This document shows, in pieces, positions 4,647 through 60,076 of a stretch of 64,000 nt of DNA. Location of the stretch: positions 768,001 to 832,000 of the forward strand of contig CAWETI010000002.1 in the NCBI GenBank assembly GCA_963812015.1. The letters are read 5' to 3'. Source of the stretch: an uncultured delta proteobacterium (GTDB taxonomy: Bacteria > Desulfobacterota > Desulfobaccia > Desulfobaccales > 0-14-0-80-60-11). The translations under genes were made by a program, and so were the position numbers. Below the pieces are notes generated by a model. It was not told the DNA's origin, did no database searches, and was given only the letters and a program-made list of their open reading frames with translations. The first letter of the stretch is position 1. Every line of letters begins with the position of its first letter.

Positions 4647-4721
<75 letters not shown>

Positions 4722-22325: not shown

Positions 22326-22393
22326 TGGGGCATTGACAGCGGTGGCAGAAGCTGCCGCATAATCTCGCATATCACTATCGAGGATATCATACC

Positions 22394-23020
22394 ATGGACC
22401 AAAACGATGGATTCATCCTGGAGGTTTTCTCCGATTACGTCTGACCCTGGTGCTACTTCATCACCGGGCGTGTTGAAAGGCTAAAGGAAGAGCACGAGAT
22501 AGAGATCAGGTGGATTGCCTTCCCCCTTCATCCGGAAACACCGGAAGAGGGCTTGAGCCTCGAGGAGCTTTTCAAGGGACGGGGAATAGATCTCCCTTCG
22601 TCCATGGAGCATCTGAAGAAAGTCGCTGCCGAGTTGGGACTTCCCTGGGGTATGCGCACGAGAACCTACAATAGCCGCCGGGCGCAAGAACTCGGGAAAT
22701 GGGCTGAGGCATTGGGCAAAGGGGTTGAGTTTCACATGGCTGTATTTCAGGCATACTTCGCTGATGGAAGGAACATCGCCGATATTTCGGTCTTGAAAGA
22801 GATCGCCGGGGCAATTGGCCTTGATGGCCGAATGGCGGAACAGGCCTTGACTGAGAGGACTTTCAAGGAAGCAGTAGACCGTGACTGGGATTATTCCCGC
22901 ACCTGCGGCATTACAGCAGTTCCAACTTTCATGGTTGATGGGCGGAAAGTGGTCGGCGCCCAGCCTTACCAGGCTCTTGAAGACCTTGTAAGAGCCGCGG
23001 GGGGGAATATGCGGAAATGA
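22394..23020 (+). CDS. DsbA/FrnE-like selenoprotein (UxxC)
   Basis: MDQNDGFILEVFSDYV-TGA(22442)-PWCYF continues in frame into the 22553 ORF (GITAVPTF...GAQP). Confidence 0.85.
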
Positions 23021-23242
23021 TGGGCGCAGTATAGTATCTCGGGTTCTCTCCGACAAGCTTCACTTGGATGTGGTCTTTAGCCATGTGCCCTTCGATGATG
23101 CTAAACATATTGTAGATAAGCTGAGGTTAGCTGCAATCCATACACAACCCGGTTTCGGCGCAGGAGATGGCCGCCTCTTGCCACCTCCGGCTCAGATAAC
23201 CTGGCTCACAAAAGAGGAAAACTTCTTAGAGAGATAGTCATC

Positions 23243-23788
23243 ATGAACGAGCTCCCTTTATCTAAGGCATACTGCTTCATTGAGCCAGGTCCGGTCGTGC
23301 TGGTGACGACCGCGAATGAGGAACGCGCTAACATCATGACGATGAGCTGGCACATGGTGATGGATTTTACCCCATTGATCGGCTGCATCATTGGCCCCTG
23401 GGATTACAGCTTCACGGCGTTGAGTACAACTAGAGAATGCGTGATCGCAATTCCTACGGTTGATCTTGCATCCAAGGTGGTCGAAATCGGCAACTGTTCG
23501 GGTGATGAGATCGATAAGTTTAATGCCTTTGGCCTGACCCCGATGCCAGCCCAAAAGGTCAAGCCGCCGCTCGTGGCCGAGTGTCTCGTCAATCTCGAAT
23601 GCCAGGTAGCAGATACCAGCATGGTTGATAAGTACAATCTCTTCATCCTGGAAGTGGTCAAGGCCTGGACCGATCCAGAGCGCGAGGAACGCCGGACGAT
23701 CCACCACAATGGGGATGGTACCTTCGTTGTCGATGGCAGGACCATCAATCTAAAGGAGAAGATGGTAAAATGGCAGGTTCACCTCTAA
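23243..23788 (+). CDS. Flavin reductase-like family protein
   Basis: EPGPVVLVTT, NIMTMSW, GNCSG..DKF, PPLVAEC..NLEC, HHNGDG. Confidence 0.85.
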   Translation: MNELPLSKAYCFIEPGPVVLVTTANEERANIMTMSWHMVMDFTPLIGCIIGPWDYSFTALSTTRECVIAIPTVDLASKVVEIGNCSGDEIDKFNAFGLTPMPAQKVKPPLVAECLVNLECQVADTSMVDKYNLFILEVVKAWTDPEREERRTIHHNGDGTFVVDGRTINLKEKMVKWQVHL

Positions 23789-23839
23789 CCAAGCAGGCTA
23801 TCGAGGACCAGATTCCGGATCATGGGACGTGCGATGTTG

Positions 23840-24058
23840 CTGCTATGACTATGAACTTATTACCGAACAAATAAACACTTAATCTCCAAAGCATATCGAC
23901 TCTTTTCGACCTGATGGCTCCATAGCTTTCCCGCCCATAATCGACCCTCTTTCAAACGTGAGCACTTGAAATCTTCCTCCCCACAAATGCCAGGACAAGA
24001 TATTCAGATCATATATGTAATTTTTGACTGCCTGATGATAAGTGAGAGGTTTGGCAAG
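23840..24058 (+). repeat. Cassette-site copy 4: long two-core form (219 bp)
   Basis: CTGCTATG..AACTTAT; cores ATCT-CCAAAGC-ATAT (23882) and ATAT-TCAGATC-ATAT (24000); TCTTCCTCCCCACAA; GATAAGTG..TTTGGCAAG. Confidence 0.85.
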
Positions 24059-24523: not shown

Positions 24524-27500
24524 ATGCCTGCGATGTCCTGGAAAGGTGTTCAGTCCTGTAAGATTGGGCGTATTATTTTTAGAGCTGTCACTTATCTGTT
24601 GATAATCACTCTCGGTGTCAGCTATTCATCTGCCCACGCCCAAACCCTGACTCCGGCTCTGGTTTTCTCCACCTATCTGGGAGGAACGGCTGGCTCCAAT
24701 CCGCTTACTTTCGCCCAAAACGTCGCTTGCGACGCACTGGGGAATATCTACGTGACCGGCGCCACCCAGGCCACGAACCTTCCCGTCCTGAACGCCTACC
24801 AACCGACCCCGGCGGCAGGCAGCACGGAGTCGGCGTTCGTGGCGAAGTACAATTCGGCCGGCCAGCTGCTTTGGTGCACCTACCTGGGTGGCAATAATCA
24901 AAGCATGGGCATTGGGGTGGCGGCCATGCCGGACGGCGGCGTGGCGGTCGTCGGCCTTACCACTTCGAATGCGTCGTTCCCCATCACTTCGAACGCTTTT
25001 CAGTCGAAGAACAACGGACAGTCGGATTACTTCGTGACCGTATTTAATGCGCAGGGCAAACTCGAATACTCGACGTACCTGGGTGGGAGCGGCGTGGAGG
25101 GCGCGGTGGGGGCAACAGGTTTTACCGACGATAGCAACCCCGGCAACTGTATTGCGGTGGATGCAAGCGGTCGGATCTATGTTGGCGGCATAACCACTTC
25201 CGGTGGCGGCAGCGGACAGACTAAATTCCCGCTGACGTCCAATGCCTATCAGAAAAATCTTGCCGGCTCGACCAACGCCTCCCTGAGCATCATCGACCCT
25301 AACCAGAGCGGCGGCGCCTCGTTGGTTTACTCCAGCTTTCTGGGCGGGGACCACGATAGCCAAGGGCACAGCGTCGCGGTGGACCCCTCCGGCCAGTACA
25401 TTGCCGTGGGCGGCTTTACCACCTCTTTGAACTTCCCCACCACCAGCAACGCCTACCGGAGTACTGCCCCGCCTGGTGGCTTTGGCCCCAATTCAAGCAA
25501 CGGCTTTATCACCGAATTCCAATCAACCCAGCCCGGTTCCCCGTCCTCCACATACAGCATGCGCTACTCCACCTACCTGGGGGCAAACTCGAGCACCGCC
25601 CGAGATGACGTCTACGGCATGACCATGACGCCATCGGGGCTCATCGTGGCCACGGGCCGGACGCAGTCGGCGGGCTTTCCCATGACCACGGGAGGCCCCA
25701 CCATCTTCAATTCCGCCCCCTATCTCCAGGAGGGAGTGTCTGGAGATGAGCCCTACGTCGTGAAGATCAACCCTGCCTTGAATGGCACCGCCTCCCTCGT
25801 CTACTCCACCTTCCTGGGAGGCGGATGTAAAAGCGGCAAGTGGGGCAGTTGGTCCACCAGCGTGGCCGTCGATGCCCGGGGCGCGGTCTATGTAGCCGGG
25901 GAGACCGGGCCCAACACCCAAGGCGCCCCATATGTGCCTTCCAACCTGACGGCGCCCCAGAAGTTTCCTTTCACCCCCAACGCCTTCCAAAAGGCGCCCC
26001 AGGGGAGCGAAGACGCCTTGCTCATGCAAATCAACCCAAGCGGCGACTCCCTGGGCTACTCTACCTACCTCGGCGGGACACTCAGTGACCGCACCTACGG
26101 ACTGGCCGTCGATCCCGACGGCAACGTCGTCATGACAGGTCTCACCTTTTCCAGCGATTTTCCGTTACAAAATGCGGCGCAAAACTATCCGGGCAACAAC
26201 GGGTATCAAAACGCCTTTGTGACCGAATTCTCGCCGTTATACACTCCTAATAATTTGATAACAGACTACGGCGCCACCTATACGGTGACCGGAGACATCA
26301 CCTATGATAATGACTATATTGGCCAGAACAGCACCGGCGCGCTGATCCAGGGGGATTTCACCAACACGGTGAACAATAATCTTGAATTAGGCCAAAACGC
26401 CGGGGCCAGCGGCAGCTATAACTTGAGCGGCGGCAGCCTGTCGGTGGCCGGAAATGAGTACGTCGGCTACTCCGGCACCGGCGCCTTCACCCAAACCGGC
26501 GGTACTCACACGGTGACCGGCATCCTGATGCTGGGGGCCAATGCCGGCAGCAGCGGCACCTACTCGCTGAGCGGCGGCAGCCTCACGGTGGGAGACTATG
26601 AAGCCGTGGGCTTCTGCGGCACCGGCTCCTTCACCCAGAGCGGCGGCACCCATACGGTGACCGCCCTGTATCTGGGCACCGAAGCCGGGGCCAGCGGTTC
26701 CTATACCCTGAGCGACTCCGGTAGCGGCAGCCTTCTCTCGGTGACCGGAAATGAGTTTATCGGCTACTCCGGCGCCGGCACCTTCACCCAGACGGGCGGC
26801 AGCAATACCGTGGGCAGTAACTTCTTTGTCGGCACCCAGGGCGGCACCGGCTCCTATAGCCTGAGCGGCGGCAGCCTCACGGTATCCGGCGACCTCTACC
26901 TGGGTAACAGCGCCGGGGCCAGCGGCAGCTATAACCTCAGCGGCGGCAGCCTATCGGTGGGAGGCAATGAATATGTCGGCAACTCCGGCACCGGCACCTT
27001 CACCCAGACCGGAGGCAGCCATACGGTGACCGGCACTTTGTCCATCGCTGATCAGTCAGGTAGCAGCGGCACCTACAACCTCCAGGGGGGCAGCTTGACC
27101 GCCCCAACCTTCCAGGTGAACTCGAGCGGCATCTTCAATTATAGCGGCGGCACCTTTACGGGTCGATTAGTCAATTACGGCACGGTAAACTTTAACGCCG
27201 ACTTCACCGCCAGCGACGGGCTGGCTAACTACTCTGCCACTCCTCTCAGCATCAACGCCGGCCGCACCGTCACCTTGAACGGCTCGGGACTGGACAACGA
27301 AGCGACCCTGGTAGTAAACGGCACCCTGGCAGGCATTGGCCCCCTGGTCAACAACACCACCGGTACGCTGAGCGGTACTGGCACCATCCAGGGGAACCTC
27401 ACCAACCAGGGTACGCTCTCACCCGGGAACTCCCCCGGCACCTTGACCATCAATGGCAACTACACCCAGACCGCCGCCGGCACCCTGTTGGAGCAGATCG

Positions 27501-28975
27501 CCTCGGCCAGCAGCTACAGCAAGCTGGCGGTCAGCGGCACCGCCAGCCTGGCCGGTGCCGTGGCTCCGGTGTTGTTGGGTGGCTATCGCCCGAAAGCCTT
27601 CACGGTGTTCCCCGATATTATCACCACCACTGGCGGACTGACAGGAACATTCAGCAGCGTGACTCAGCCTGCGGGCCCCACCTTGATCTGGCAACCCTAC
27701 TATGACAACTCCAGCTTCGGCCTGACGGTCCAGCGGGATTATGCCAACCAGTGGTTGGGGCTCAATTCGAACCAGCAGCAGGTTGGCCTTATGCTCAATA
27801 GCGTGGCAGCCACCACTACCGGCGACTTGGGCGCCGTCCTGACCGCCATCGATGCCCTGCCGGCCAATTCTGACGTGCAAAATGCCTACAAGCAGATTTC
27901 CCCGGAGAAGGCCGGGGCCCTGGCTAACTTGGGTTTTGTCGCCGCCACCTTCCAGATGCGCAATCTGGCCACCCGGACCACTAACCTCCGGTTGGTTCAG
28001 GGGGAGAGCGGTGGGGGCGGCGGTCTCGCCTCCGGGGGCCTTAGTTGCAACTACTCCAAGCTGGATGGTGTGATGCTGGCTTATAACGGCGCCTCCCTCT
28101 CCAATCTCTTCAGCGCCCGCAAGGAGTTGCAGGCCCCGGAGGGCCACTGGGGGCTCTATATGGACGGAGGAGCTGCCTTCGGCAGCCAGACCTCTTCGCT
28201 CAATCAGACGGGTTATAATTTTACCCTGGGCGGCTTTACTGCCGGAGCCGATTACCGGCTGCGGGACAATCTCCTGGTGGGCCTGGCCACGGGCTACAGT
28301 AACACCAGTGCCGGTTTCTACGGCTCCGGGGGCAGTGTTAACACGAATACCATACCCTTTAACGCCTATGCGGCCTATTTCCCCGGATCCCTCTATGCCT
28401 ATGGTTCCCTGGGCTATGCCCTCAACCTCTTTGACCTGAAACGGGGCATAAGTTTTGGCGATATTTCCCGCACCGCCTCAAGTTCCTCTACCGGGAACCA
28501 GTTCAACCTCTATGGCGAGACAGGGTATGACGTCAGAATGAGCCGGTTTATCCTGACCCCTTCCGCCACCTTAGCTTATTCCGCCCTGTGGCTGGGTGGA
28601 TTTACGGAACAGGACGCCGGGTCCCTCAATTTGAAGATAGCCTCCCAGACCGCGGATTCTCTGCAAACCGGCATAGGTGGCCGGCTGACTGTCCCTCTCC
28701 AGGCGGGCTCGGTTAAGGTCGTGCCCCAGGGCTATGCCTTCTATCAGCACGAGTTCGCCAACGGCAGCCGGAACCTGAACGCCAGCCTGAGCCAGGGGAG
28801 CAGCACCTTCAATTTCCAGACCGACGCGACCAAGCGGAACTATGCCTTGGTGGGAGCCAGCATCACTGCAGGGCTCAGGAAAAACCTCTACGCCCAGGTC
28901 AACTTCAACGCCGAAGTGGGCCGCACCGGCTCCACCGGCCAAGCCATCAACGCCGGCTTACGCTGGGAATTTTAG
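24524..28975 (+). CDS. Autotransporter with SBBP beta-propeller repeats and Gly/Ser/Thr-rich passenger repeats
   Basis: Signal peptide (AHA); repeated YSTYLGG...AVD..G.VYVTG; repeated GSYNLSGGSL/GTGTFTQTGG; SPGNSPG; beta-barrel ending LRWEF. Confidence 0.9.
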   Translation: MPAMSWKGVQSCKIGRIIFRAVTYLLIITLGVSYSSAHAQTLTPALVFSTYLGGTAGSNPLTFAQNVACDALGNIYVTGATQATNLPVLNAYQPTPAAGSTESAFVAKYNSAGQLLWCTYLGGNNQSMGIGVAAMPDGGVAVVGLTTSNASFPITSNAFQSKNNGQSDYFVTVFNAQGKLEYSTYLGGSGVEGAVGATGFTDDSNPGNCIAVDASGRIYVGGITTSGGGSGQTKFPLTSNAYQKNLAGSTNASLSIIDPNQSGGASLVYSSFLGGDHDSQGHSVAVDPSGQYIAVGGFTTSLNFPTTSNAYRSTAPPGGFGPNSSNGFITEFQSTQPGSPSSTYSMRYSTYLGANSSTARDDVYGMTMTPSGLIVATGRTQSAGFPMTTGGPTIFNSAPYLQEGVSGDEPYVVKINPALNGTASLVYSTFLGGGCKSGKWGSWSTSVAVDARGAVYVAGETGPNTQGAPYVPSNLTAPQKFPFTPNAFQKAPQGSEDALLMQINPSGDSLGYSTYLGGTLSDRTYGLAVDPDGNVVMTGLTFSSDFPLQNAAQNYPGNNGYQNAFVTEFSPLYTPNNLITDYGATYTVTGDITYDNDYIGQNSTGALIQGDFTNTVNNNLELGQNAGASGSYNLSGGSLSVAGNEYVGYSGTGAFTQTGGTHTVTGILMLGANAGSSGTYSLSGGSLTVGDYEAVGFCGTGSFTQSGGTHTVTALYLGTEAGASGSYTLSDSGSGSLLSVTGNEFIGYSGAGTFTQTGGSNTVGSNFFVGTQGGTGSYSLSGGSLTVSGDLYLGNSAGASGSYNLSGGSLSVGGNEYVGNSGTGTFTQTGGSHTVTGTLSIADQSGSSGTYNLQGGSLTAPTFQVNSSGIFNYSGGTFTGRLVNYGTVNFNADFTASDGLANYSATPLSINAGRTVTLNGSGLDNEATLVVNGTLAGIGPLVNNTTGTLSGTGTIQGNLTNQGTLSPGNSPGTLTINGNYTQTAAGTLLEQIASASSYSKLAVSGTASLAGAVAPVLLGGYRPKAFTVFPDIITTTGGLTGTFSSVTQPAGPTLIWQPYYDNSSFGLTVQRDYANQWLGLNSNQQQVGLMLNSVAATTTGDLGAVLTAIDALPANSDVQNAYKQISPEKAGALANLGFVAATFQMRNLATRTTNLRLVQGESGGGGGLASGGLSCNYSKLDGVMLAYNGASLSNLFSARKELQAPEGHWGLYMDGGAAFGSQTSSLNQTGYNFTLGGFTAGADYRLRDNLLVGLATGYSNTSAGFYGSGGSVNTNTIPFNAYAAYFPGSLYAYGSLGYALNLFDLKRGISFGDISRTASSSSTGNQFNLYGETGYDVRMSRFILTPSATLAYSALWLGGFTEQDAGSLNLKIASQTADSLQTGIGGRLTVPLQAGSVKVVPQGYAFYQHEFANGSRNLNASLSQGSSTFNFQTDATKRNYALVGASITAGLRKNLYAQVNFNAEVGRTGSTGQAINAGLRWEF

Positions 28976-29573: not shown

Positions 29574-29677
29574 TAACTCGCTATAAGCTGGAAATAAAAA
29601 AGGCAGGGCCATGGTGACCTGCCCCCATTTCGATCCACTACTCTAAATAATTCGTGGATCAGTTTTTGGGGGGCAGG

Positions 29678-31568: not shown

Positions 31569-31837
31569 AGCTATCTCCTGGTTTCCTTGCGTGTCAATAA
31601 TTAAGGCCCGTTTCAGCATAACCCGAAGAGCCAGGTCAGGCAAACCATAGGTATGGCCGAGGATTCTGCAATATTATTCTATCTCTCGCAGCACGAGTGG
31701 GAGCCAAGTCAAGCCAGAGATCGTGGCGTAGTCGTGGCATCACAATGGTAGGATGACCATCACCTCGGCTGGGCTATCGACAGTAGCATACTTCAAGACT
31801 ATTCATGGTTTCGGGTGAGCTGAAGGCTCATGAATGA

Positions 31838-32055
31838 CTGCTATGGCTGAGAACCTATCAAGACCCTAAAAACTTCCCATATCCAGAGCATATCAACACC
31901 TTTTACCCTGAGGGATTTCTGCCATTCTCGCCGGTAACCTGGCATTCCCCCAGCACCGACATCTGAAATAATCCTCTCCACAAAGGCCCCCGGAAGATAT
32001 CGAGATCATATCTGCAGTTTTTACTGGCTCGTGGATAAGTGAGGAGTGTGGCAAG
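31838..32055 (+). repeat. Cassette-site copy 6: long two-core form (218 bp)
   Basis: Cores ATAT-CCAGAGC-ATAT (31879) and ATAT-CGAGATC-ATAT (31997); ends GATAAGTG..GTGGCAAG directly at the IS110 left end. Confidence 0.87.
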
Positions 32056-32150
32056 TAACTATGATGCAAAGGAGAGCTCTGCCCGTCCTATCAGTTGGTG
32101 GTATCCTGGGATTCCAGACCAGTCTAACCACATCAAGATAGGAGGCTGCG

Positions 32151-33209
32151 ATGAGACGACCCAAGGGGCAGGTGAAAGGCGGAGAAGATTTATTTGTCGG
32201 GATCGACCTACATAAGAACAGGTGGCACATAACCGTTCGGACTTTTGACGTAGAGGTGTTCAGCGCCAGCATTCCAGGGACCTGGGAGTCTTTGCCCCGA
32301 GTTTTAGCTCGCTATCCCGGCCATCCCCTGCAGGCGGTCTATGAAGCCGGATATTTTGGATTTCGGCTTCATGACCGCCTGGTGGATCATGGCATCCCCT
32401 GCCTGGTTACTCCCCCCAGTCTGCTTCCCCAAGAATACGGCAACCGGGTCAAAACCGATCGGCGGGACAGCAGTAAGCTGGCGCATCTGTTGGCCAAAGG
32501 GATGCTGAAGCGGGTGTGGGTGCCCAGTGAAGAGGAACTTTATCACCGCCAGGTCATCCGTCGCCGCCGGCAGTTAGTCAGGGATCGGGTGCGGACCCAG
32601 AGTCGCATCAAGGCAGAGCTGAGGTTTTACGGAATTCGCCTAGAAGAACCACGAGGCAGATGGACCCAACTATACTGCGAGACTCTGCGGAGTATCAGGT
32701 TTGGGAACCGCTGGATGCAGGAGAGCTTCAACCGCCTGCTGGAGCAGTATAAATTTTTAAGTGCGCAGATCGATAAACAGACCCAACTGCTGCGGGAATT
32801 ATCCGAGACTGCTCTGTACCAGGAGCGAGTGGAGATTTTACAGAGCATCCCCGGTATCGGGATAATCTCTGCGATGGAACTGCTGCTGGAACTGCAGGAC
32901 GTGTCCCGTTTTCGACGGGCGGAACAACTGGCGGCTTACGTGGGTTTAACCCCGTCCCAATACTCCAGTGCGGATAAGGTGCGCATGGGCCGTATCACCG
33001 GCATCGGCAAGAATACCCTCCGGGCCATATTGGTGGAAGCCTCATGGAAACTGATCACCAAGGATCAGGTGATGCGCCAAAAGTACGAAAGGATCAAGAT
33101 CCGTTCGGGAGGGAAGCGTGCCATTGTCGCCATTGCCCGCACCCTGCTGCTGCGCATGAGGCGCATGTCGCTTGATGGTCAGGCATACGCCTTTCAACTG
33201 GCAGCTTAA
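32151..33209 (+). CDS. IS110 transposase/recombinase
   Basis: VGIDLHK, YEAG, KTDRRDS (DEDD domain); SIPGIG, AYVGLTP...SS. Confidence 0.95.
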   Translation: MRRPKGQVKGGEDLFVGIDLHKNRWHITVRTFDVEVFSASIPGTWESLPRVLARYPGHPLQAVYEAGYFGFRLHDRLVDHGIPCLVTPPSLLPQEYGNRVKTDRRDSSKLAHLLAKGMLKRVWVPSEEELYHRQVIRRRRQLVRDRVRTQSRIKAELRFYGIRLEEPRGRWTQLYCETLRSIRFGNRWMQESFNRLLEQYKFLSAQIDKQTQLLRELSETALYQERVEILQSIPGIGIISAMELLLELQDVSRFRRAEQLAAYVGLTPSQYSSADKVRMGRITGIGKNTLRAILVEASWKLITKDQVMRQKYERIKIRSGGKRAIVAIARTLLLRMRRMSLDGQAYAFQLAA

Positions 33210-33242
33210 GCATGCAAGTCCAACAAAAACCGGTTTAGGGTA

Positions 33243-33372
33243 TGGCGACTGATAACTGTGAGTGCCTTCCAATCGGCAACCACGTTGGCAAGTATGTCAG
33301 CCCTGATTGAATACCCCGGATTACTTACTTGCGGTCCCACCTGAGAGGGGAACCACGAATAGGAGACTGGCT
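33243..33372 (+). ncRNA. Putative bridge/seek RNA of the IS110 element
   Basis: Two stem-bounded internal loops carrying CTGATAACT/TTGGCAAGT (target-like) and TACTTACT/ATAGGAG (donor-junction-like). Confidence 0.7.
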
Positions 33373-33503
33373 TGGATTCTAACCGGATACTGCACCACCT
33401 CGGCTCTCTTGACTTTGCACATAGGAGTTAACAGAAGCAGTCACATGGTCTTCTGAACCTCTTCTGAGGGCATGAAGGGCTGGTTTATAGGAAGGGAATT
33501 CTT

Positions 33504-34004
33504 TCAAGGGGCGATCTTAGGGGCGGGGCAGGGAGCAGGGAGACCCCAATCCTGTAATTTGGCGAGGATGCAGGCCAGCAGCAGGGGCAGTATTGCTTGC
33601 AAGAGCTCAGAGAGCTCCAGGCCGGTTTCGATGATGTGGGGCTGGATACCGATGAGGCAGATTTCCCGGGGGGCGACGTCGAGGAGTTGGGCCGCGGCCA
33701 GCACGTCTATCAGGCCCAGATGATGCAGGGAATCTTTGCTGGTGAACAAGGCCGGAATCTCCTGATTTTCCAGGACGCCGATGCAGCCGGGCTCCTTGCG
33801 GAAATTTACCGCGTCGACAAAAATGACCCGGTCCCGGCCCTCGATGTAAGGGAGCAGGTCCAGACCGGCGGTGCCCCCATCCACGATTTCGAGGCCGGGG
33901 GGCATCAGGTAACGCGCCTCCAGGGCCCGAATGGCGTGGATACCTATGCCTTCGTCCCGGAGCAGGAGGTTGCCGAGACCTATTAAGGTTAGTTTTATTT
34001 CCAA
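33504..34004 (-). CDS. hybD: Hydrogenase maturation protease
   Basis: IGLGNLLLRDEGIG, DGGTAG, FVDAV, SLHH, GIQP. Confidence 0.88.
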   Translation of the reverse strand: MEIKLTLIGLGNLLLRDEGIGIHAIRALEARYLMPPGLEIVDGGTAGLDLLPYIEGRDRVIFVDAVNFRKEPGCIGVLENQEIPALFTSKDSLHHLGLIDVLAAAQLLDVAPREICLIGIQPHIIETGLELSELLQAILPLLLACILAKLQDWGLPAPCPAPKIAP

Positions 34005-58914: not shown

Positions 58915-60076
58915 CGGGGCCACCTCCGGCGATCTGAACACGGTCCTGGACGCCATCGATGGCTTACCGGCCAACCCCAATGTCCGGGACGCCTTCAAGC
59001 AGATCTCCCCGGATAAGGCCGGGGCCCTGTCCACCCTGGCCTTTGCCGGGGCAGCCTCCCAGATGCGCAACCAGGCCCAGCGGATCACCGATCTGAGCTT
59101 CGGTGGCCGGGAGGCCGGAGTCCTGGGTGGGCTCCCCGGGTCCTTTGACCTCAATTACTCACGGACGGGGGGGCTGATGTTGGCCTATAACTCCGCCAGC
59201 CTGGCCGGGCTGATCACGGAAAAGCCCAAGGCAGCCCCCGAGAGCCGCTGGGGTCTCTACCTTGACCCGTCCCTCATCTTGGGGTCTCAGCAATCCTCGG
59301 TGAACCAGACGGGATTTAACTTCACCATGGCGGGCTTCACTGCCGGGGCCGACTACCGGGTTCGGGACAACCTCCTGGTGGGCCTGGCTACGGGCTACAG
59401 CCACACCAATTCCAGTTTCTTCGGCTCCGGGGGCGGGGTCCAGACCAACACGTGGCCCCTGACGGCCTACGCAGCCTACCTGCCCCAGTCCTTTTACGCT
59501 TACGGCTCCCTGGGCTATGCCCTGAACCTCTTCAACCTGCAGCGGCAGATCGGCTTTGGGGGCCTCAACCGCACCGCCACCAGCTCCACTACGGGCAATC
59601 AGCTCAACGCTTACGGGGAGGCGGGGTACGACCTGAAGGCCAGTTCCCTGGTAATAACCCCCGTGGTTTCCCTGGCCTACTCCGGCCTCTGGGTGGACAG
59701 CCTGACGGAGAACGGCGCCGGGGCCCTGAACCTCAAGGTCTCTCCTCAAAACGCCACCTCTCTGCAAACGGGGGTAGGCGCTAAGGTGGCCGCGCCTTTG
59801 AAGAGGGGCCCGGTGACGGTGGTGTCTCAGGCCTACGCCACCTACCAGCACGAGTTCGCCAACGACAGCCGGGGCCTCAACGCCAGCCTCAGCCAGAGCG
59901 GTAGCACCTTCAATTTTCAGACGGACGCCGCCCCCAAGAACTATGCCTTGGTGGGGGCCAACGTGACCATCTTGACCGACAAAAACTTCCGGGTTGAACT
60001 CAACTACAATACCGAAGTGGGCCGATCCAACTACACCGCCCATTCCGCCTACGCCGGGGTGCGCTGGGAATTTTAA
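58915..60076 (+). pseudogene. 5'-truncated autotransporter (linker plus beta-barrel only), paralogue of 24524-28975
   Basis: TSGDLNTVLDAIDGLPAN..KQISPDKAGAL..VRWEF closely matches the earlier gene; no signal peptide or passenger. Confidence 0.8.

Follow-up and report, generated by a model that had tools for sequence, protein, structure and literature searches.

An IS1111-type insertion sequence with a probable right-end bridge RNA directed at a dispersed intergenic repeat of an uncultured deltaproteobacterium

Some insertion sequences (IS) of the IS1111 type, such as IS4321 and IS5075 in the inverted repeats of the Tn21 family and the members of the IS1111-attC group, are parasites that insert at a single fixed point close to the end of a repeat. 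An element of this type lies within a 64-kb window of DNA from an uncultured delta proteobacterium (64,000 nucleotides, positions 768,001 to 832,000 of contig CAWETI010000002.1, assembly GCA_963812015.1). Window positions 32056-33427 are read here, with a probability of about 0.9, as an IS1111-type IS whose right end would encode a bridge RNA, or seekRNA, of about 135 nt with two internal loops, one to read the target and one to read the donor. In the part of the study by Durrant et al. drawn on here (PMC11208160), the RNA of IS1111-type elements is located in the right end, and multi-loops are noted in many members. Promoters formed across the joined ends are reported for ISEc11 and ISEc21 (PMC11187229) and discussed for ISPpu10 (PMC12288879) in the corresponding portions of those papers.

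The element is 1372 bp long, with one copy of an AG core included, and interrupts the sixth copy of a dispersed intergenic repeat. Its ends and those of its target are as follows.

31828-32055 (+): target unit, the part of repeat copy 6 that precedes the crossover (repeat families D5, D8, D9 and D10; aligned copies; nhmmer family)
32049-32053 (+): left target half TGGCA, guide-specified according to guide/flank agreement
32054-32055 (+): core dinucleotide AG, left copy
32056-33427 (+): insertion sequence, from its junctions and from ends common to a second genomic copy and to relatives
32059-32071 (+): left subterminal inverted repeat CTATGATGCAAAG, the reverse complement of 33413-33424 plus one extra A, kept in relatives
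33413-33424 (+): right subterminal inverted repeat CTTTGCACATAG, kept in relatives
33428-33434 (+): right target half TTAACAG, 6/7 against the guide-predicted TTATCAG

The left junction (32048-32063) reads GTGGCAAGT/AACTATG and the right junction (33420-33434) reads CATAGGAGT/TAACAG, which can be parsed as TGGCA-AG-TAACTATGATGCAAAG and CTTTGCACATAGG-AG-TTAACAG. AG is present at both junctions in this copy, in the second copy and in the relatives, uninterrupted sites read TGGCA-AG-NTA, and the target is not duplicated. Among the relatives the base that follows AG is a constant T at left junctions and is variable at right junctions and at uninterrupted sites. Therefore, this base belongs to the IS on the left and to the target on the right, and the shared core is AG rather than AGT, the crossover proposed in the original prediction. 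The subterminal inverted repeats are 12 nt long with one bulged A and begin 3 nt inside each tip, which falls in the IS1111 range of 7-17 bp. The non-coding ends measure 95 nt on the left and 218 nt on the right, with the longer one downstream of the transposase gene (tnp) in the IS1111 layout.

The gene itself is intact.

32151-33209 (+): transposase gene, 352 aa (open reading frame; PF01548, PF02371 and NF033542; weak ISCro4 and IS621 matches)

Both transposase domains are found above their cut-offs, PF01548 (DEDD_Tnp_IS110) at an E value of 8.9e-13 and PF02371 (Transposase_20) at 5.8e-26, and the model NF033542, named 'IS110 family RNA-guided transposase', matches with 224.7 bits against a cut-off of 140. 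Matches to the solved transposases of ISCro4 (E 5e-10) and IS621 (E 2.4e-9) are weak and fall in the C-terminal domain. The motifs GIDLHK, YEAG, KTDRRD and YSSA align with ISCro4, with the N-terminal part of the alignment scoring only 4 bits; we take these motifs to hold the catalytic D-E-D-D residues and the serine. The best match in a plasmid collection is just 36.8% identical, which places the protein far from the well-known elements. The C-terminal motif is GLTPSQYSSA, in which the serine is retained and A stands in place of G; the IS1111 motif is given as GL-P----S(t)G, with SG, TG or occasionally TA, in the portion of PMC11187229 used here. Residues 135-269 also give a weak match, below the cut-off, to the TIGR-Tas RNA-guided endonuclease model NF052498 (29.1 bits, cut-off 100).

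Relatives were collected as 70 loci from a genome collection and the best 80 of 431 metagenome matches. The gene was located by script in 152 loci, and 77 right ends, 71 of them unique, were found by the conserved tip. Three of the 71 were left out of the flank counts because their flanks were short or contained N, and L040 was left out of the right-end alignment of 67 sequences, given that its target loop did not align. Relatives with transposases of at least 82% amino acid identity are referred to as the close clade. Among same-genus and same-family genomes, copies are present in 6 of 61, the source genome included (E up to 1e-60).

Comparative folding of the 67 right ends, each with 14 nt of flank, by RNAalifold yields two modules with 32 pairs, of which 20 show compensatory changes. 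The modules and the guides that they are predicted to carry are listed here.

33236-33305 (+): target-binding module (outer stem 33236-33247/33295-33305; inner hairpin 33258-33283; guides in the internal loop)
33249-33257 (+): right target guide CTGATAACT, the reverse complement of AG+TTATCAG, predicted to pair with the right target half on its top strand, here at 8/9
33286-33292 (+): left target guide TGGCAAG, equal to the left target half plus core, which would pair with the bottom strand
33316-33370 (+): donor-binding module (outer stem CCGG 33316-33319 / CTGG 33367-33370; inner hairpin 33330-33357)
33325-33329 (+): putative right donor guide TTACT, the reverse complement of AG+TAA (core plus start of the left end), conserved in the close clade
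33359-33365 (+): left donor guide ATAGGAG, which repeats the final 5 nt of the right end followed by the AG core

In the target module, pairing reaches 97.0% in the outer helix, where both partners change in 8 of 11 pairs, and 97.3% in the inner helix, where they do so in 4 of 5; in the donor module the outer helix is 97.8% paired and the inner one 98.3%, with 6 of 8 pairs changed on both sides. A named structure was also scored, from which guide-to-guide pairs were removed and to which a pseudo-helix between the right guide and the flank was added. It is paired in 95.7% of cells, compared to 83.8% in shuffles (none of 500 reaches it) and 32-44% when partners are slid by 1-3 columns, and 24 of its 34 pairs are changed on both sides. 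In the helix between the right guide and the flank, pairing itself reaches 87.1%, and both partners change in 4 of 6 pairs.

The guides were compared with the DNA that flanks each element. The right guide agrees with its own right flank at 410 of 680 positions (positions 3-12, n=68), and shuffled flanks give a mean of 227.5 (sd 11.5, maximum 273 in 2000 shuffles). Over positions 1-9 the agreement is 64, 57, 50, 54, 60, 53, 50, 43 and 39 of 68, and beyond these it drops to 28, 18 and 15, so that the right guide can be set at AG plus seven bases. The agreement persists when the close clade is taken alone, where 36 elements with 22 distinct right-guide 7-mers give 180/252 against 119.4 for shuffles (sd 7.4, maximum 147, 5000 shuffles), and in the distant group, where it is 169/224 against 78.0. 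Individual pairs include ACGTACAGCT with AGCTGTACGT in L018, L097, L095 and L102, GACTATCT with AGATAGTC in L025, and the right guides GATTCATCT and GATCCATCT with AGATGAAT and AGATGGAT in L130 and L134, respectively.

The left guide behaves in the same manner, agreeing with the left flank at 287 of 385 positions (n=55) against 180.3 in shuffles (sd 9.1, maximum 213). Agreement is 50-54 of 55 over TGGCA, and 50-55 over all seven positions of TGGCA-AG, falling to 16 and 11 of 55 further left; it thus ends 5 nt to the left and 7 nt to the right of AG. Distant relatives carry ATTGCAG, ACGTTAG, CAGTTAG, GTACAG or TTTATAG in left guide and left flank alike, and L101, within the close clade, has GTGCAAG in both. 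The original prediction named insertions of other copies at unrelated sequences as evidence against it, and this check came out in its favour: among the close relatives, 39 of 44 unique left junctions are exactly TGGCAAG, with the remainder off by one or two bases.

On this comparative evidence the programmed target is predicted to be 14 bp, TGGCA-AG-TTATCAG (5+2+7), or TGGCAAGTTATCAG in continuous form, and the site occupied by this element matches it at 13 of 14 positions. With TTGGCAAGT at 33285-33293 as the left 9-mer and CTGATAACT as the right one, both match at 8/9 or better in 4 of 20,000 mononucleotide shuffles of the 191-nt right-end body. TGGCAAG occurs 520 times in this genome, in no case followed by a 7/7 match to the right guide, and six empty TGGCAAG sites match the right guide at 6/7, equal to the occupied site.

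The second loop is tied to the element's own ends. In 68 of the 71 right ends the left donor guide is identical to the last five bases of the element's own right end followed by AG, and it falls into three covarying classes, ATAGGAG in 52, ATAGCAG in 11 and ATAGTAG in 5, with tips GG, GC and GT. On the other side of the loop, TACTTACT is present at 33322-33329, of which only TTACT is kept among relatives. The left tip is nearly invariant, and in other clades an unchanged tip is accompanied by TTACA or TTGCA; therefore, the right donor guide is plausible but unproven.

The original prediction was made from the letters of the window, and its coordinates and strings for both junctions and the four loop segments all proved correct on re-reading. 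Its assignment to IS110 (IS1111 type) agrees with the domains, with the inverted repeats set in from the tips, with the greater length of the non-coding end that follows tnp and with the order of the guides. The two loops that it proposed lie between stems with compensatory changes, and the guide-target covariation that it called for was found, with loop sequences that covary with flanks and with element tips. Its target, TTGGCAAGTTATCAG, was correct overall, with the exception that the first T is not specified by the guide, and its 8-nt 5' donor guide is retained only as the conserved TTACT.

Joining of the element's ends in a circle would also bring together two promoter hexamers.

33409-33414 (+): TTGACT, -35 hexamer of the predicted junction promoter (TTGA block invariant or nearly so; gapless to the tip in 67/67 sequences)
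32060-32065 (+): TATGAT, -10 hexamer of the predicted circle-junction promoter, 17 nt after TTGACT once the ends are abutted

With 13 nt of the right end and TAAC between the hexamers, the abutted ends would form a TTGACT-17 nt-TATGAT promoter, which may drive the transposase and, by read-through, the RNA. In the mechanism proposed, the first loop would read the target on both strands, with its 5' side (33249-33257) pairing to the top strand of AG+TTATCAG and its 3' side (33286-33292) to the bottom strand of TGGCA+AG. The second loop would read the junction at which the two ends meet in the excised circle. The right tip and AG are matched by the 3' side of this loop (33359-33365), and AG+TAA of the left tip probably by the 5' side. 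The DEDD/serine recombinase would then exchange strands at the shared AG without duplication of target bases. The target would be the last conserved stretch of the dispersed repeat, of which copy 6 holds the element.

Several results weigh against this interpretation. The single-sequence fold of the right end is not more stable than shuffles (z -0.20; 75 of 200 at least as stable), no Rfam family matches the right-end region at E values up to 1, and a promoter scan of 31900-33600 returned no sigma-70-like promoter before the RNA. Covariation of the right donor guide with the left tip was sought across the relatives and none was found, and many relatives' sites match the right half of their target at only 4-5 of 7 positions. 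Finally, current activity of the element is uncertain, given that the genome holds one intact copy, one decayed copy and fragments although six equally matching empty sites exist.

The single-sequence minimum-energy fold, which pairs the two target guides with each other, was dropped for the comparative structure, and the RNA structure is comparative throughout. The promoter scan gave 2 sites against 1.1 expected, both within tnp, and in the whole window the tRNA at 4647-4718 is the only Rfam match at gathering scores. Contigs of relatives from wetland metatranscriptomes (85% likeness) cover parts of tnp and 33268-33438 in each of three RNA libraries, and such contigs show neither transcription, nor ends, nor level; the gap in them at 33154-33267 coincides with a stretch in which relatives differ and is uninformative. 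These contigs are given no weight in the interpretation.

The target repeat can be described in its own right. An nhmmer search with a profile of the seven window copies identifies a genomic family of 46. Each unit measures about 230 bp, and its two ends form an imperfect inverted repeat, with CTGCTAT..ACTTATCA at the left end and TGATAAGT..ATAGC at the right (31828-32055 and other copies). A conserved block of about 70 nt contains the palindrome GATAT-N7-ATATC and ends in TGGCAAG-NTA, with TGGCAAG invariant in 43 of 43 anchorable copies. Among 44 unoccupied copies, 43 are intergenic and 32 face a co-directional gene at a median of 273 bp, compared to 2644 of 5000 (53%) random intergenic points. 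The same upstream architecture is found to the left of relatives in other metagenome-assembled genomes and in metagenomes. The family had been predicted to be abundant and functional on the grounds that an IS is specialised on it; the abundance is borne out, and the step from IS targeting to function is unsupported.

Downstream of sites that face a convergent gene, at 25-60 nt, a shared GC-rich hairpin (GGCAGGGCCATGG..GACCCTGCC) is present, at 29590-29625 in the window and, for example, at C3:1012268, C3:122375, C3:882259 and C2:465615. It may act as a terminator or belong to a short transcript.

As to the target's identity, the reading preferred here is that of a regulatory repeat resembling a promoter. 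In its specific form, which is held tentatively and at somewhat less than even confidence, the repeat would be regulatory DNA that includes a sigma-54-type -24/-12 promoter, such that TGGCA is the -24 box and the IS separates -24 from -12. The invariance of TGGCAAG and the intergenic, gene-facing position of the copies are consistent with this, as is the recurrence of the upstream architecture in other assembled genomes. The exact GG-N10-GC spacing occurs in 13 of 43 sites (two of the 43 occupied by the IS), GC stands at that offset in 8 of 36 relatives' right flanks compared to 0-3 at twelve other offsets, and the genome encodes rpoN and 21-22 enhancer-binding ATPases. However, two thirds of the copies, copy 6 included, are without the -12 GC, and the conserved block lies immediately upstream rather than at the distance typical of enhancers. 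A limited literature search found no link between IS1111 and sigma-54 in print.

This promoter reading can be extended to the whole IS clade, as a speculation that we consider unlikely in full. The clade would be a dedicated parasite of an array-forming intergenic element in uncultured Syntrophobacterales-like bacteria, with TGGCAAG as the sigma-54 -24 box, the left guide fixed on it and the right guide rewritten to follow the variable -24/-12 spacer. If so, every insertion would split, and so switch off, one promoter of the family, and an RNA-guided IS would be aimed at a class of promoter.

Another reading, less likely than not, is that the clade does use such guides but that the present copy is a resident relic, no longer moving and perhaps silent or weakly active. 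The copy is the single intact one in a 3.96-Mb genome with six equally good empty sites, and the sole other full-length copy, at C3:887024-888041, is decayed, with 87% identity, a 349-bp deletion and a broken frame. No contig links 33427 to 32056 in the DNA run that is the likely source, although contigs cannot show absence. On the other hand, the transposase has an unbroken frame and shares 88-93% identity with many intact relatives, and no damage is seen in the stems, in the two target guides, in the left donor guide or in the two hexamers of the junction promoter. In the preferred reading this copy may still be mobile.

In addition to the intact and decayed copies, several fragments are present in the genome of origin. 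A profile search finds eight modules that consist of donor loop and right tip, five of them solo beside TGGCAAG sites and one in tandem behind the decayed copy; one left-end scrap is found as well. The solo and tandem modules comprise the last 90-135 nt of the IS and lie beside TGGCAAG sites at C3:804378, 448606(-), 839845, 837930, 883731 and 888054, and most of the modules are decayed. The first base of the tandem module directly follows the AG in the TTGGCA-AG that encodes the guide, and its last is that of the normal tip, next to which AG-TTATCCGCTAT begins. The DNA for the left guide, which copies the left target half, may serve as a built-in false left junction that spawns such solo modules. 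A deletion by recombination between left flank and left-guide DNA fits the tandem module at C3:888041 and the module at 804378; it was rejected for the short modules 448606, 839845 and 837930, which start about 37 nt further in. A variant module that begins with AG-CTAGTGCGCAT(C/G)GACCTCC is found at C3:804359, at C3:883700 and as the right flank of the metagenomic relative L098. The variant is the exact programme of the right guide of L124, and it also occurs at loose contig ends in two RNA libraries.

The repeat units are arranged in co-oriented arrays of 3-7 units spaced by 1-12 kb, as at 15209-44313 of the window and, in genome coordinates, at C2:783-812k, C3:1000-1012k, C3:755-765k, C3:1477-1491k and C3:1660-1679k. 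The arrays are mosaic between species: in 17 genomes of the same genus, synteny with the 18-kb array of the window is lost and pieces of it lie on different contigs at 74-93% identity. Such arrays might suggest that the repeat serves in recombination, as the boundary of mobile gene cassettes, which we regard as doubtful. Co-orientation and the scattered, non-syntenic pieces speak for it, together with a 2-kb piece and its following site that recur in two genomes with unrelated neighbours, and a 1.5-kb stretch that is 100% identical inside another array. However, no recombinase family was found among 16 open reading frames scanned at 12.6-46 kb, with smaller frames and the rest of the genome outside the scan, and the 'cassette site' label attached earlier to the repeat is unsupported. 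The sites moreover occur at numerous loci of two contigs, the stretches between them contain several genes in both orientations, and the unit of about 230 bp is unlike attC.

The identical stretch measures 1516 bp (22334-23849 and C3:1010659-1012174), carries a flavin-reductase-like gene and ends just before the site unit in both arrays; it could reflect recent duplication, gene conversion or an assembly effect. The window also encodes a 1483-aa autotransporter (24524-28975) with internal repeats of about 70-150 nt (26329-27161) and a paralogous C-terminal region 31.1 kb downstream (59294-60075).

The weakest alternative, that the matches between right end and flanks are captured target copies or protein-binding sites in a protein-directed system, takes some support from the facts that the DNA encoding the left target guide itself copies the left target half and that the RNA is here a prediction from sequence, but is very improbable. 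Of the two matches, only one is a direct copy, the other being a reverse complement, and they occupy opposite strands of a single internal loop whose neighbouring stems are rich in compensatory changes. The second loop does likewise for the element's own tip, and the same arrangement was demonstrated experimentally for IS1111 and IS110 elements in the parts of PMC11187229 and PMC11208160 drawn on here.

The preferred reading, that of an IS with a bridge RNA, shows the logic of a bridge RNA cleanly, and by comparison alone, in an IS1111-type clade that is remote from those studied. It defines a 5+2+7 target, an AG core and a donor guide that tracks three tip variants. The 22 right-guide variants among transposases 82-93% identical form a natural retargeting series, which provides material for the study of retargeting and of mismatch tolerance. 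The TGGCAAG repeat family is abundant and shared across related genomes, and therefore merits a study of its own. The element is a well supported, although fairly ordinary, addition to a class described in 2024, with known IS110/IS1111 biology unchanged.

Compared to IS4321/IS5075 and the IS1111-attC group, the target family here is different and uncharacterised, and it resides in uncultured deltaproteobacterial genomes. Compared to IS621, the core here is AG rather than CT, and the protein matches weakly, in the C-terminal domain. In the portion of Durrant et al. 2024 used here (PMC11208160; structures such as 8wt6), the IS621 bridge RNA is similar in its two internal loops, each of which reads both DNA strands, and IS621 shares a dinucleotide core common to target and donor, a 14-bp programmed target and recombination by way of a circle. 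According to the same portion, the RNA of this element differs in that it lies in the right end rather than the left, with the order of the target guides reversed, and its donor loop is a simple internal loop, unlike the multi-loops of many IS1111 members.

The IS1111 elements with seekRNA, ISEc11, ISKpn4, ISPst6 and ISPa11, as far as the portion of Siddiquee et al. 2024 used here describes them (PMC11187229), resemble this element in their DEDD transposases of about 340-350 aa, their subterminal inverted repeats and their long non-coding region downstream of tnp. Their seekRNAs also place the guide complementary to the top strand 5' of the one for the bottom strand, with overlap at the crossover, and they target a repeated sequence without duplicating it. 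The element described here differs from them in its new target and in a C-terminal S-A in place of SG, TG or occasionally TA, and here target and donor loops are both resolved by covariation. Finally, ISPpu9 and MITEPpu9 of Pseudomonas putida, in the part of Pares-Guillen et al. 2025 drawn on here (PMC12288879), likewise recombine at AG and target an intergenic repeat, and their right-hand module is also found alone and in tandem elsewhere in the genome. In comparison to MITEPpu9, the solo modules of this genome correspond to the donor-loop half of the predicted bridge RNA plus the right tip, start just after the left-guide DNA and are mostly decayed, and their independent mobility is a guess.

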